A DNA stretch of 64,000 bases. Origin: Escherichia phage ECO103 4-12-1. Below are positions 6,605-12,905 of this stretch, piece after piece (position 1 is the first letter of the stretch; the number at the start of each line of letters is the position of its first letter). The notes beneath the pieces are model-generated. The model worked only from the letters and a program-made list of their open reading frames with translations, was not told the origin of the DNA and searched no databases. The translations under genes were made by a program, and so were the position numbers. The stretch lies in the sequence record OR844650; one strand, given 5' to 3'.

Positions 6605-6914
6605 TAGGCTCCTGTTTAGATTCTTTCATTAGTACTATCATCTTATGTACTAATGGCATAGGAAACTCTAAATCCCATACTAATGATTCCTGAAAGTATT
6701 CCTCTGGTGATAAAGTACTTAAATCTTTAATATCAACGTGCTTGTATATTTTATTTTCGTAATTAACAAATGATATATATAAATCACTAACATAAGAATC
6801 ATAGGTAATTGTGAATGGCTTACCCTTGTAATCCATTACATCTCTACATAGACTACTTTTGATATATGTATGTTCAAATGATTTATATACCTTGAGTTGT
6901 ATATTAGTTTTCAT
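6570..6914 (-). CDS. hypothetical protein, EEYFQ-motif family
   Basis: ORF track; motif 'SPEEYFQESLVWD'. Confidence 0.6.
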   Translation of the reverse strand: MKTNIQLKVYKSFEHTYIKSSLCRDVMDYKGKPFTITYDSYVSDLYISFVNYENKIYKHVDIKDLSTLSPEEYFQESLVWDLEFPMPLVHKMIVLMKESKQEPNGDYEEHTVEY

Positions 6915-7179
6915 ATTTCTCTTTATTAGCTTGTTTGGTTTTATAGTGAATTAAATCTATTAATGTAATCAAGTACAACGTCAAATAGTACTCTTGTTGA
7001 TCTGTACCTAATGATACAAAGAACTTGTGCTCATAGATTAAAACCTGTTTCTCTTCAAATGGACATTTAATCCTCTGTATAGGCTTAAGTAAATGATAGT
7101 ACTTATTAAATCTATGATACATTTCTAGTTCTGTCAGTACTTTCATATTAAACACATACTCCATTAGCTGTAGCATCAC
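6904..7179 (-). CDS. small protein, LGTNYQE family
   Basis: ORF track; 'VSLGTDQQEYY'; tandem array. Confidence 0.55.
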   Translation of the reverse strand: MMLQLMEYVFNMKVLTELEMYHRFNKYYHLLKPIQRIKCPFEEKQVLIYEHKFFVSLGTDQQEYYLTLYLITLIDLIHYKTKQANKEKYEN

Positions 7180-7369
7180 GTAAAGCTGTCAAATACTTCT
7201 GTACGGCTTGCTCTTGCTTATTTGTACCTAAAAGTATATACATCCATAATTCACTGTAATGTACATCTTGTGTATAAGGGTTGTTGTAACTTTTTGATAA
7301 TATAGCATCAAATTCAGATGCATGAACCCTTGTGAACTTAAGAATATCTTGTTGTGATATGATTCTCAT
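7148..7369 (-). CDS. small protein, LGTNYQE family
   Basis: ORF track; 'ILLGTNKQEQAV'. Confidence 0.55.
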   Translation of the reverse strand: MRIISQQDILKFTRVHASEFDAILSKSYNNPYTQDVHYSELWMYILLGTNKQEQAVQKYLTALRDATANGVCV

Positions 7370-7581
7370 ATCTTTTCCTGTACAATCTGTATAAGAATAC
7401 CTATGTGTGAATTAACAGTTCTCTCTTGATGCTGTGTTCCTAAGAGTGTCAGTACTATCATATCTGAACGCAAAAGATTTTTTTCAAGTTCACTTATATC
7501 AGTTCTTGAATCAAGTGCCATATATTTGTGATTATTCTTCCTGAATAGTGCCAAGTACTCTTGGTTTGATATTATCTTCAT
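7366..7581 (-). CDS. small protein, LGTNYQE family
   Basis: ORF track; 'LLGTQHQERTV'; ATGA overlap. Confidence 0.6.
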   Translation of the reverse strand: MKIISNQEYLALFRKNNHKYMALDSRTDISELEKNLLRSDMIVLTLLGTQHQERTVNSHIGILIQIVQEKI

Positions 7582-7793
7582 AGTTTACTTTGAATTTCCA
7601 TTAAAAGTGCTCTAATATGCTCATTGACAAATCTCTCTTGGGAATCTGTGTCTAGGGTGAGAAGCATTCTTAAATCGGAACCTCTGATGGTATATTCTAA
7701 ATCATTCTTTGATTCTCGCATAAGTTTCTGAAAGGATGAGAAGTGTAATCCCATGAGTTCAATGTATTCTGCTGTTCCTAGTGGTTTTGGCAT
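7578..7793 (-). CDS. small protein, LGTNYQE family
   Basis: ORF track; 'LTLDTDSQERFV'. Confidence 0.55.
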   Translation of the reverse strand: MPKPLGTAEYIELMGLHFSSFQKLMRESKNDLEYTIRGSDLRMLLTLDTDSQERFVNEHIRALLMEIQSKL

Positions 7794-8005
7794 TTTAGTT
7801 CAATCGCTCGTTTAAGTGTATTAATATAATCATTAATATAGCATTCTTGATAGTTAGTCCCTAGTGTAGCTTGAACATAGATTTCATTTCTCTTAATAAT
7901 TTTATCCATATCTGGTATATCTGATGTGTTAATAACAAACAACTTCAAAAACAATCCATTTATAATTGTTAGGTATTCTTCGTCGGTAATCATTCGCATT
8001 TGCAT
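7778..8005 (-). CDS. small protein, LGTNYQE family
   Basis: ORF track; 'ATLGTNYQECYI'. Confidence 0.6.
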   Translation of the reverse strand: MQMRMITDEEYLTIINGLFLKLFVINTSDIPDMDKIIKRNEIYVQATLGTNYQECYINDYINTLKRAIELKCQNH

Positions 8006-8211
8006 CTTCTCAGTACTGATTCTTTAAGTTCATCAATGTAGTACTCTACATATTCTTCTTGTAGGTTTGTTCCGAGATGTAACAGTACTCTTAAATCTGC
8101 TCTCAGTACTTCTTTATCATCTTCATCTATATCAGACAGTGTTATGTTTAAGAATTTACTTGAACTCTCTATAAGTAATATTACTGAATCACCTTTGCTT
8201 AAAATTTTCAT
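7990..8211 (-). CDS. small protein, LGTNYQE family
   Basis: ORF track; 'LHLGTNLQEEYV'. Confidence 0.6.
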   Translation of the reverse strand: MKILSKGDSVILLIESSSKFLNITLSDIDEDDKEVLRADLRVLLHLGTNLQEEYVEYYIDELKESVLRRCKCE

Positions 8212-8419
8212 AATCTCTTTTTGCTTTCCTCGCCAAAAGGTACATATACGATTCTTCGTATTGTGCTTGGTAGTTTGTGTTTAAGAGTCGAAACAACTTC
8301 TGTTCTGCTAGAACTAGTTGCTTATCTTCATAACAACGATAGCGTATCAACTTTTTGTATTCGATGTTGATTACATCCATTACTATAAGCCCATGTTCAT
8401 CATCTGTCAAGTGTTTCAT
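8189..8419 (-). CDS. small protein, LGTNYQE family
   Basis: ORF track; 'RLLNTNYQAQYE'. Confidence 0.55.
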   Translation of the reverse strand: MKHLTDDEHGLIVMDVINIEYKKLIRYRCYEDKQLVLAEQKLFRLLNTNYQAQYEESYMYLLARKAKRDYENFKQR

Positions 8420-8657
8420 GCATTTTTCTTTTTCTTATATGTTTAGTTAAAAGGTATATTAGTTTTCTATTGTATTCTTCCTGATAGTTTGTTCCTAATA
8501 GTGCAAGAAGTTTTGCTTCAACTAAAGCTAATTGACGTTCTTCAAATGTGTGTTCCAGTATGTACTTGGGGTTTGATTTTTTAGCGTAAGCACTATTAGT
8601 CTTCATTACAATCTTATGATATTCATTAGCAGTTAGGATTTTTAAATACTTGATCAT
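8400..8657 (-). CDS. small protein, LGTNYQE family
   Basis: ORF track; 'ALLGTNYQEEYN'. Confidence 0.6.
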   Translation of the reverse strand: MIKYLKILTANEYHKIVMKTNSAYAKKSNPKYILEHTFEERQLALVEAKLLALLGTNYQEEYNRKLIYLLTKHIRKRKMHETLDR

Positions 8658-11428: not shown

Positions 11429-11648
11429 CTAGTTTATCCTGTATAACATTCGTTAATTGTTCGATATATTCTGTGCAAAACTTATCTTGATATTGAGTCC
11501 CCATAAAGTACAGCAACCATAGCTCATTAACTTTAGCTCGCATTTGGTTCCATGTAAGGCTGGGGTCACCGTAGACTATCCTTGTGATGGGGGTTAGTTT
11601 ACGAATTATAGTTTCAAATTCATCATCAGTTAAGTGTTTCATTTGCAT
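11334..11648 (-). CDS. small protein, LGTNYQE family with C-terminal extension
   Basis: ORF track; 'YFMGTQYQDKFC'; overlaps next gene by ~75-95 nt. Confidence 0.5.
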   Translation of the reverse strand: MQMKHLTDDEFETIIRKLTPITRIVYGDPSLTWNQMRAKVNELWLLYFMGTQYQDKFCTEYIEQLTNVIQDKLDDYLLTKHEDFIRSGVSDCPLLSSKHPPHEQ

Positions 11649-11857
11649 TTGTCCCTTATTAAATCAGTGAGGGCAACTATGTGTGCAATAACATACTCTT
11701 CCTGGAAGTTCGTCCCCAGTACAGCCATCATGCGTTTATCGGTGGTGTTTATCCTGTGTTCCCTTACACATAAACCTTCTTTGTGAGGAAGTGTAAAATA
11801 TTTGTTTATTGCAGCTATGATAATTTTATTCTTCTCTATATTACTTAAATGTTTCAT
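11639..11857 (-). CDS. small protein, LGTNYQE family
   Basis: ORF track; 'AVLGTNFQEEYV'. Confidence 0.6.
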   Translation of the reverse strand: MKHLSNIEKNKIIIAAINKYFTLPHKEGLCVREHRINTTDKRMMAVLGTNFQEEYVIAHIVALTDLIRDKCK

Positions 11858-12066
11858 AGTTTACTCTTAATGTAGTTCTGAAGTTCAATTAAGTATTTCC
11901 CTACATAATACTCCTGAAAGTCTGTATCCAAAAATGCACCCATAAGTAAATCCTTCTCCATTGCCCTTGATAAGTTAAGGTCTGCATTTGAAAGGTATAT
12001 AAGTAATATTTCAGTCTGGACAGAATTAAAACGTTTCTTATATTCTTCAGGTGTTAATATAATCAT
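11854..12066 (-). CDS. small protein, LGTNYQE family
   Basis: ORF track; 'AFLDTDFQEYYV'. Confidence 0.6.
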   Translation of the reverse strand: MIILTPEEYKKRFNSVQTEILLIYLSNADLNLSRAMEKDLLMGAFLDTDFQEYYVGKYLIELQNYIKSKL

Positions 12067-12278
12067 AATTTGCTCCTGATGTATTTCTCAAGAGATGACA
12101 AATACTTTTCCTCATAATACTCCTGATAGTCTGTTCCCAAGAATGCACCCAAAAGTATTTCATTTTCCAATACCTCGGCTAAGTTTAAATCAGACGTCTC
12201 TTCGTATATTATGAGGATTTCAAGTTGTCTGGCAGCGATGCGTTCAGTATATTGATATGAGTTTTCTATAATAATCAT
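12063..12278 (-). CDS. small protein, LGTNYQE family
   Basis: ORF track; 'AFLGTDYQEYYE'. Confidence 0.6.
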   Translation of the reverse strand: MIIIENSYQYTERIAARQLEILIIYEETSDLNLAEVLENEILLGAFLGTDYQEYYEEKYLSSLEKYIRSKL

Positions 12279-12484
12279 ATTTTACTCTTAATATCTTCTA
12301 TTAAAAATCGAATCCATTCTTCAACATAATCTTCCTGATGGTTTGTGTTCAGTACAGCCAACATGCGGATCTCTGCTCTTGCAACTTCAATTTCAGTTTT
12401 AGGCAGGTCTTTGCTGATATCCACCATTAAGTCCATGTATTTCAAGATAAGACCGTATGATTGGGTTCGTGTTATAGTTTTCAT
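12275..12484 (-). CDS. small protein, LGTNYQE family
   Basis: ORF track; 'AVLNTNHQEDYV'. Confidence 0.6.
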   Translation of the reverse strand: MKTITRTQSYGLILKYMDLMVDISKDLPKTEIEVARAEIRMLAVLNTNHQEDYVEEWIRFLIEDIKSKI

Positions 12485-12681
12485 TGTTTCCTCGTGGACA
12501 ATATTTTATTTTTCAATGTATCCATATATTGCCACACCCATCTACCCTGATAGTTTGTTCCCAATGTAATCAAAAGGTATAACTCCATTCGTTCTACGTG
12601 TGTGTCTGTGTTGTAAATCTTTACGTAGTTTTTACGTAACAGTGATTGATATTCTTCTTTATTTAAAATACGCATTTTCAT
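12481..12681 (-). CDS. small protein, LGTNYQE family
   Basis: ORF track; 'ITLGTNYQGRWV'. Confidence 0.6.
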   Translation of the reverse strand: MKMRILNKEEYQSLLRKNYVKIYNTDTHVERMELYLLITLGTNYQGRWVWQYMDTLKNKILSTRKQ

Positions 12682-12875
12682 AGTTTACTCGTTATATCTT
12701 CAATTAAATACCAAATCCAATCGTTGACATACCTTTCCTGAAAGTTAGTTCCAATGAATAGTGCCATAATTAATTCACGCTTATAGGCAATACCACGGTC
12801 ATGGGACTTATACATTATCATAGCCATGTTATTGATAAGTCTTTCGTGGTGCTGTTCTTTAGTTAAAATACGCAT
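12678..12875 (-). CDS. small protein, LGTNYQE family (first gene of array; start corrected to MRILTKEQ)
   Basis: ORF track 12678-12905; AAGGGAG RBS precedes internal ATG; 'LFIGTNFQERYV'. Confidence 0.55.
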   Translation of the reverse strand: MRILTKEQHHERLINNMAMIMYKSHDRGIAYKRELIMALFIGTNFQERYVNDWIWYLIEDITSKL

Positions 12876-12905
12876 AGGGACTCCCTTAAAATTAATATCA
12901 ATCAT

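Follow-up and report, generated by a model that had tools for sequence, protein, structure and literature searches.

A tandem array of diverged small-protein genes next to the terminal repeat of an Asteriusvirus jumbo coliphage

Escherichia phage ECO103 4-12-1 (sequence record OR844650), of which a stretch of 64,000 nucleotides was analysed and is here called the window, carries 27 consecutive minus-strand open reading frames (ORFs) between positions 6904 and 12905, all encoding members of a single family of small proteins; two diverged members lie downstream, at 5155–5603. The source genome, of about 350 kb, is of an already known type, the 121Q/PBECO4-like jumbo coliphages of the genus Asteriusvirus. 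The locus is an old diversification, and neither a dosage amplification nor an assembly artefact, because the copies share only about 24% amino-acid identity. We tentatively read the array, with somewhat less than even confidence, as an early, translationally coupled operon whose products would form a repertoire of small binders serving host takeover or counter-defence.

The Array and Its Protein Family

A hidden Markov model (HMM) built from the 27 array proteins recognized every one of them with E-values from 2e-27 to 3e-17, and scored the outlying ORFs at 5155–5442 (E = 5.5e-8) and 5391–5603 (E = 6.7e-7), both on the minus strand; beyond these 27 + 2, the best six-frame segment of the window reached only E = 0.23. 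An earlier note on this DNA, made from the sequence alone, had counted about 27 tandem genes and two outliers, a count that the HMM bears out, and the motif it had described returns in the family alignment: M-x-(I/L)-L-T-x-x-E-Y at the N-terminus, a stretch of variable sequence, and a C-terminal h-L-G-T-N-Y-Q-E-x-Y-V-x-x-Y-I-x-x-L-x-x-x-I-x-x-K. Across 183 non-redundant members, the conserved T, Q and L are present in 99%, 96% and 94%, respectively, while positions 16–37 are nearly free to vary. The products measure 66–104 residues if the longest ORFs are taken, as the earlier note had done, and 65–102 residues with family-aligned start codons.

Pairwise identity among the window copies averages 24% and does not exceed 57%; net charge spans −8 to +9 and the isoelectric point (pI) 4.3 to 9.9, about half of the members being basic (pI above 8.5). 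Metal-binding cysteines or histidines are absent from the family. At the DNA level, the best repeat is 226 nt long at 76% identity, and resemblance is left only in the motif-coding stretches. The earlier note had offered dosage or diversification as the pressure behind the expansion; with copies so diverged and so diverse in charge, the former falls away and diversification is the relevant one. Its proviso that the array might be an assembly artefact of a smaller locus is excluded both by this lack of near-identical copies and by the collinearity of the array in 34 independent records.

The genes are tightly packed. An ATGA overlap (−4) is found at about 13 of the 26 junctions, most of the others, according to the start chosen, have overlaps of 8–32 nt or directly adjoining genes (0 to +2 nt), and one possibly has a 29-nt gap; if any plausible start is allowed, 25 of the 26 show an overlap or a spacing of no more than 2 nt. 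The claim that most overlap by 1–4 nt therefore stands as regards tight and largely overlapping packing, and is somewhat overstated as regards the extent. Shine-Dalgarno-like GAG, GAGG or AGGA motifs lie inside the C-terminal codons of the upstream genes, and stop/start overlap together with such internal ribosome-binding sites is the layout of a translationally coupled operon, so that coupling appears probable. The array starts at 12875 and not at 12905, as first proposed, because the ATG at 12905 is not conserved (it is TGG in WPEC3); that codon would moreover fall within the promoter, and the ATG at 12875 is preceded by a Shine-Dalgarno-like GGAG.

In the direction of transcription, member 1 (12678–12875, 65 residues, E = 1.1e-21) is followed by five genes that each overlap the upstream stop codon through ATGA: member 2 (12481–12681, E = 4.9e-20), member 3 (12275–12484, E = 4e-22), member 4 (12063–12278, E = 2e-19), which has the net charge of −8, member 5 (11854–12066, E = 1.8e-22), whose start lies behind AGGAG, and member 6 (11639–11857, E = 1.4e-24). 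Member 7 (11334–11642, E = 3.5e-27) is the 102-residue product and has a 30-residue C-terminal tail, which member 8 (11156–11428, E = 1.1e-21) overlaps; member 9 (10920–11171, E = 3.2e-17) is the most diverged of the array and has a six-residue insertion after the GT motif. Then come member 10 (10721–10936, E = 1.6e-24), member 11 (10506–10724, E = 2.5e-25, ATGA overlap), member 12 (10297–10515, E = 2e-25), member 13 (10070–10300, E = 7.3e-27), whose structure was modelled from the residues encoded from 10294, member 14 (9829–10068, E = 2e-27) and member 15 (9536–9799, E = 1.3e-26), the last two forming the pair with 76% nucleotide identity over 226 nt.

Member 16 (9324–9539, E = 1.8e-21, ATGA overlap) precedes member 17 (9093–9323, E = 2.3e-22), member 18 (8849–9103, E = 5.5e-24), which is 54–57% identical to members 17 and 19, member 19 itself (8626–8877, E = 1.8e-26), member 20 (8400–8657, E = 4e-22) and member 21 (8189–8419, E = 2e-18). 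The series continues with member 22 (7990–8211, E = 1.8e-22), member 23 (7778–8005, E = 9.6e-25), member 24 (7578–7793, E = 3.9e-20) and, both with ATGA overlap, members 25 (7366–7581, E = 2.6e-22) and 26 (7148–7369, E = 1.2e-21); member 27 (6904–7146, E = 9.3e-23), with ATG 7146 behind GGAG, ends the contiguous array.

Predicted Structure

Structure prediction, which the earlier note had proposed as a check, yielded a four-helix model (AlphaFold2 on the 27-member alignment; pLDDT, the predicted local distance difference test, 97; pTM, the predicted template modelling score, 0.81), with helices at residues 6–15, 17–24, 31–45 and 52–71 and a beta-bridge that joins the N-terminus to the G-T turn. 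Among the 183 members, the conserved hydrophobic residues are spaced i, i+3/4, i+7 and would therefore form buried helix faces, and helix 4 has the near-invariant T at its N-cap and the near-invariant Q at N3, the expected site of a capping box. Judging from the topology of the model, the conserved polar residues E10, E42, T51, Q54 and E55 should gather at one pole, opposite the variable segment. A fold search with the model matched only its own family.

Homologs and Distribution

The family is catalogued as phrog_4148, a PHROG family of unknown function that includes the gp319–gp341 array of phage 121Q. Nine members of the contiguous array were scanned with this profile, and all matched it (E = 1.2e-19 to 1.3e-26), with an end-to-end alignment in eight and most of the profile covered in the ninth; the outlier at 5155–5442 also matched (E = 6e-5). 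When all 27 members were compared with Pfam-A, NCBIfam and PADLOC, no family was matched by more than one of them and the weak matches fell far below the cut-offs: DAM-like-phage1 (PF22555) appeared in one member of the 27, and CARF_HEPN and AbiEii of PADLOC in one each, all of which were put down to chance. Family profiles matched no sequence in the PDB, and no solved structure was matched by sequence profile or by fold. The family thus has no relative in Pfam, NCBIfam, PADLOC or the PDB, and phrog_4148 has no assigned function, in agreement with the earlier note.

An exhaustive HMMER search over 1.84 billion cluster representatives (E ≤ 1e-3) retrieved only 77 clusters, all of 52–122 residues; each of the 20 inspected had the L-G-T-x-x-Q-type motif or a close variant. 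A word-indexed search with a broader alignment again gave only E. coli jumbo-phage contigs and Klebsiella phages. The Klebsiella phages with family members are K64-1, RaK2, KP13-7, RCIP0023 and phiKp_21, among which taxonomy was checked for K64-1, an Alcyoneusvirus. In K64-1, 13 members lie within a 40-kb stretch, in small groups spread across 18 kb, and two of them have an extra C-terminal domain; a third, uncultured Rak2-like lineage, known from a 101-kb metagenomic contig, has 17–18 members, 12 of them in tandem. On these results, the family appears to be specific to Rak2-like jumbo phages, within which it appears to have been expanded in tandem more than once. Profile searching, the other check proposed at the outset, accordingly places the family in phrog_4148, Asteriusvirus, the Klebsiella phages and the uncultured relative.

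Two variations on the single domain were observed. An extra C-terminal domain of about 50 residues is present in K64-1 at 20552–20926 and 23903–24253 and in the uncultured contig at 12370–12768; this extension, found in the 115–133-residue members of the Klebsiella phages and the uncultured contig, matched no Pfam or PHROG domain. P0001, a metagenome protein of 154 residues, is a natural in-frame fusion of the orthologs of members 20 and 21 (window 8189–8657).

The array region was matched in 34 phage records (30 Escherichia and 4 Salmonella), all jumbo myoviruses of 310–386 kb; every matching record whose taxonomy line was read (121Q, PBECO4, phAPEC6, G17 and others) is assigned to Asteriusvirus. 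The closest, SHEFM2K, is 96.4% identical across the entire array. All genes under the record matches are annotated as "hypothetical protein". Function aside, the array amounts to about 6 kb of "dark matter" in each Asteriusvirus genome, in a group of phages that is being put forward for therapy. The array was absent from the complete E. coli genomes searched. Many family proteins are labelled "Escherichia coli" and come from contigs of 340–360 kb, which are whole jumbo-phage genomes inside bacterial assemblies; such contigs agree with reports that lytic phages persist in bacterial isolates. No publication was found in which the family is identified or in which its fold, distribution, turnover, promoter context or location at the edge of the repeat is described.

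Genomic Position and Expression Signals

The array lies next to the boundary of a direct terminal repeat of about 20.7 kb, placed at window position 12973, with the repeat toward higher coordinates. Base 1 of the linear G17 record corresponds to this position, with 400 nt matching at 100% identity, and is found again at G17 350150, 20.7 kb before the end of that record; in vB_Ec-M-J the edge of the annotated direct terminal repeat (1–21525; 21,525 bp) falls on the same alignment column. In fEgEco12, a phage of the same genus, experiments have confirmed terminal repeats of about 20 kb (PMC13070987). Position 12973 therefore probably corresponds to a physical genome end. The repeat extends to about 33640–34500, and a switch in coding strand and GC skew near 34 kb would mark its other edge.

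Motif scanning and conservation identify a sigma-70-type promoter (TTGACT, 16 nt, TAAAAT) on the minus strand at 12906–12933, the site that the earlier note had placed at the head of the array; it lies 40 bp beyond the terminal-repeat boundary (−35 hexamer at 12933–12928). In the window, 121Q, WPEC3, vB_Ec-M-J and Turkey5, the −35 hexamer is invariant, the −10 hexamer is TAAAAT or TATTAT, and the GGAG ribosome-binding site is likewise conserved, while the surrounding DNA diverges (72% identity in Turkey5). Upstream of the array, between the last gene of the terminal repeat and the boundary, a long nested hairpin followed by a U-run resembles a terminator (13031–13096, minus strand; minimum free energy −27 kcal/mol, z = −4.1 against shuffles; 3′ arm CCCUUGACUUUUUUG). 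Turkey5 has at 8399–8480 an 80-bp tandem duplication that runs from the 3′ end of the last terminal-repeat gene into the hairpin region upstream of the array promoter.

Within the repeat region, ten perfect 12/12 sigma-70 promoters (TTGACA, 16–17 nt, TATAAT) occur on the minus, coding strand between 14729 and 30465, against about 0.07 expected; those checked against the ORF list lie upstream of small ORFs. Such promoters are the hallmark of immediate-early genes, as has been proposed for the related phage CBB (PMC5259590). In CBB and GAP32, the reported core of the late promoters is the heptamer ATAAATA. In the window, on both strands, ATAAATA has no copy against 46.6 expected; TAAATAG has none against 25.6 expected, and TATAAATA none against 15.3 ± 3.7 in shuffles. 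In the structural region of phAPEC6, 13 of 15 ATAAATA copies are correctly oriented and precede a structural gene by 23–71 nt, and because of this placement the heptamer is likely the late-promoter core, purged from the early or middle part of the genome that the window represents.

None of the annotated array genes of phAPEC6 (gp467c–gp489c) is represented among the 62 proteins detected by mass spectrometry in its published virion proteome (PMC7247149). The conserved promoter, the consensus promoters of the repeat, the absence of ATAAATA and the absence from the virion point to early or middle, non-structural expression; with a conserved promoter and no late promoter, the array would class as an early sigma-70-dependent unit. 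The literature searches turned up no Asteriusvirus transcriptome.

Selection, Copy Number and Mosaic Evolution

The ratio of nonsynonymous to synonymous rates (dN/dS), pooled by the Nei-Gojobori method over reciprocal-best orthologs against six related phages, is 0.30–0.41 for the array and 0.21–0.35 for the flanking small genes outside the family. The array orthologs thus appear to be under purifying selection, perhaps slightly relaxed. Pervasive positive selection was considered and rejected: pooled values stay below 0.41, and dN equals or exceeds dS in a few genes only, with small counts (e.g., 12481–12681, and 7148–7369 in several comparisons). The ORFs are intact and collinear in all seven of the other Asteriusvirus arrays compared.

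In 12 of 26 members the nearest paralog is the adjacent gene (permutation p ≤ 1e-4), and local tandem duplication can therefore be recognized as a source of the copies. The number of members found by HMM is 29 in the window and in SHEFM2K, 25 in 121Q, 30 in phAPEC6, where several are unannotated, 31 in G17, 29 in vB_Ec-M-J, 31 in WPEC3 and 21 in Turkey5. The arrays of 121Q, PBECO4, G17 and phAPEC6 are collinear orthologs of the window array; yet the arrays are mosaic, with replacement slot by slot and insertions or deletions, so that one slot may be 31–100% identical between two phages where neighbouring slots are far more alike. Member 10, for instance, is 100% identical to its ortholog in 121Q and only 61% identical to the one in SHEFM2K; member 14 recurs with 100% identity in 16 records and has no close ortholog in 121Q; G17 has three different genes in place of member 7. 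Between the window (27 + 2) and 121Q (23 + 2), eight window genes are without a close ortholog.

In the divergent phage Turkey5, the terminal-repeat genes are 83–98% identical to those of the window, the median best match of the array is 35%, and further downstream genes are 25–55% identical; compared over window 1–20000, identity breaks sharply at the terminal-repeat boundary and everything beyond it is 25–70% identical. This break suggests that the terminal repeat and the adjoining region have had separate recombination histories.

Neighbouring Gene Families

Downstream of the array, on the minus strand, lies a set of phrog_13866 paralogs (5587–5904, 6200–6604 and 6570–6914) with a common E-E-Y-F-Q-Y-S-L-V motif; as a candidate remote relative of the array family it was discarded, being missed by the family HMM. 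There is neither a gap nor a terminator between 6904 and this next family, whose ORF at 6570–6914 shares 11 nt with the last array gene. Transcription therefore probably runs on past the array into the next gene families. Another minus-strand paralog set occupies 2477–3043, 3316–3822 and 3894–4448 (27–43% identity). This probable onward transcription unit, together with the known jumbo coliphage type, the Klebsiella relatives and the adjacency to the terminal repeat, had escaped the earlier note.

A second tandem array lies on the plus strand at 39426–57211 and consists of about 15 genes for proteins of about 380 residues with RCC1-like repeats, most of them preceded by a near-identical module made of a T-run and then gatTAAATAtagTATAATgaataaaggaggaaatATG. 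Their homologs in phAPEC6 bear the annotation of DNA condensation proteins and belong to the virion. No RNA element was detected when the window was scanned from end to end for Rfam families and tRNAs.

Functional Interpretation

A conserved core, a variable face, charge diversity and fast reshuffling fit a repertoire of small binders. In such a scheme, repeated local tandem duplication followed by long divergence would have produced phrog_4148 as a lineage-specific multigene family of Rak2-like jumbo phages. Host RNA polymerase with sigma-70 most likely initiates at the conserved promoter just past the repeat boundary, and ribosomes probably move from gene to gene where stop and start codons overlap, with the end of each coding sequence doubling as the putative ribosome-binding site of the next. 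Each product would be a soluble non-virion protein of about 70 residues, with a conserved hydrophobic core, a conserved pole to which the N-terminal strand, the G-T turn and the beginning of helix 4 contribute, and a variable surface formed by the end of helix 1, helix 2, the loop and the start of helix 3. As non-enzymatic early proteins, the members might each engage a different host target, or a variant of one target, and individual slots would be exchanged through recombination among related phages. Slot turnover and copy-number variation are typical of host-interaction loci, and tandem amplification of small anti-defence genes is reported for T4-like phages (PMC9391042, PMC13096335).

Several points weigh against this reading. 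No similarity to any known anti-defence protein was found. The dN/dS is not clearly above that of the neighbouring genes; many orthologs are 100% identical among phages from different places, which fits housekeeping as well as an arms race. The array promoter matches the consensus at only 10 of 12 positions, and the stretch 4000–14500 scanned around the array contains sites as good as this one no more often than chance predicts; other candidates lie inside the array at 8410–8382 (11/12), 12091–12062 and 8942–8913 (both 10/12). The single promoter that the earlier note had placed at the head of the array is supported as a conserved sigma-70-like site. The phAPEC6 proteome comes from a related phage and detects annotated proteins only, and the array proteins are small and in part unannotated there. 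Finally, the conserved polar cluster could mean one common ligand and not 27 targets; all members may dock on one partner through that pole, the other pole recruiting differing things.

A more ambitious form of the small-binder reading is possible and rather doubtful: the array would be a germline-encoded library of mini-binders on one four-helix scaffold of a previously unseen fold, neutralising many defence effectors or toxins, with specificities that arose by tandem duplication and are swapped slot by slot between co-infecting jumbo phages.

Two other readings are unlikely, to about the same degree. Like bacterial poly-immunity loci, the array could protect against toxins outside classical host defence, coming from rival co-infecting phages, from bacteriocins or from the phage's own effectors. 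The layout of tandem, small, diverged, helical, non-enzymatic proteins with slot turnover suits such a role, and the homologous early regions of K64-1 and of the uncultured relative have annotations for a YeeU-like antitoxin and a YafQ-like toxin as well as a ParE-like Pfam match; however, the window showed no expanded family of toxins to match, and the members did not resemble any known immunity or antitoxin family. The members could instead be regulators or architectural proteins that bind nucleic acids, each with its own DNA or RNA specificity. Their small size, their helices and the basic half of the family are in keeping with this, and a precedent is the zinc-ribbon expansion of about 35 copies in phage G, for which such a role has been proposed (PMC7824862).

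That the array is largely dispensable filler, made of duplicates piled up after capsid growth according to the capsid-ratchet idea, is the sole published interpretation of such arrays (PMC5646251), and copy number does vary without obvious consequence. Nevertheless, this has a low probability, and pure filler is unlikely because of the coding constraint, visible in the dN/dS values and in the intact frames of seven other arrays, and because phages of other genera, namely the Klebsiella phages and the uncultured lineage, have kept the family; the conserved promoter and ribosome-binding sites speak against it as well. Still less credible is that the paralogs cooperate, either in a hetero-oligomeric intracellular assembly or as dedicated chaperones for another expanded family, such as the RCC1-like virion proteins or the many tail fibres. 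The members would be co-transcribed and co-translated in fixed order, two adjacent members are naturally fused in P0001, and a second large array, that of the RCC1-like genes, is present in the same window; on the other hand, the P0001 model (pTM 0.56) has a poorly resolved second domain, over which the alignment is shallow, and no confident interface, 21–31 copies with free slot replacement are hard to square with a fixed assembly, and the array is not beside fibre or RCC1-like genes, its annotated members being absent from the virion. A role in the virion is likewise unsupported. Dosage amplification of one gene to raise the amount of product (a genomic accordion) is effectively refuted because the copies are too diverged in sequence and charge, with the same diverged slots common to several phages, even though T4-like phages are reported to amplify small anti-defence genes in tandem (PMC9391042).

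If the array is indeed a repertoire of small binders, a single locus would offer natural small inhibitors by the dozen, directed at E. coli proteins or defences and built on one stable 70-residue scaffold, and with them a route to new counter-defence mechanisms and a scaffold for protein engineering. It would also provide a tractable bacterial-virus model for the birth, diversification and trading of viral multigene families, for which poxviruses and African swine fever virus (ASFV) have been the main objects of study until now.

Comparison with Known Systems

The locus falls within the lineage-specific multigene families of viruses and forms no new category. Among large eukaryotic DNA viruses, the multigene families (MGF) of ASFV and the terminal families of poxviruses are located next to the genome termini. 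As in these, the array consists of diverged tandem paralogs beside terminal repeats, with copy number and content that vary among isolates and a suspected role in host interaction; the likeness is one of functional class and not of homology, since the array proteins are unrelated to the eukaryotic virus families, measure only about 70 residues and are encoded in a bacterial virus by polycistronic overlapping genes, and for them a host-range role is a suspicion only.

The early genes of T4, the pre-early genes in the terminal repeat of T5 and the terminal-redundancy module of SPO1 are early clusters for host takeover. These clusters and the early region of CBB (PMC5259590) resemble the array in their small genes of unknown function, sigma-70 promoters, location in or beside long terminal repeats and inward transcription; however, they contain mostly unrelated genes, often with a promoter each, whereas the array presents one family 27 times behind one promoter.

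Hha/YmoA, four-helix modulators of H-NS of about 70 residues, share with the family size, helix number and an N-terminal L-T-x-x-(D/E)-Y-x-x-R-L motif; homology, considered on account of that motif, was rejected (hhalign probability 4.8%, 17 residues aligned). The experimental amplification of tifA (PMC9391042) and that driven by SegB (PMC13096335) in T4-like phages suggest a possible route to such an array, unequal recombination under host-defence pressure; the copies described there are identical, recent and act through dosage, while those of the array are ancient and diverged.

Comparable expansions have been described in jumbo phages. The phage G family of about 35 copies (Iyer et al. 2021, PMC7824862) is also a tandem expansion of a small protein, and differs in being a zinc ribbon where the array family is all-helical. 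For 121Q, a sentence published in 2017 (PMC5646251) likewise describes a very large tandem lineage-specific expansion, read as tandem duplication; it names no genes, and its copies are called "very similar", which the window copies, at 24% identity, are not. Because the RCC1-like genes number only 11–15, the phrog_4148 family is the likely referent of that sentence.

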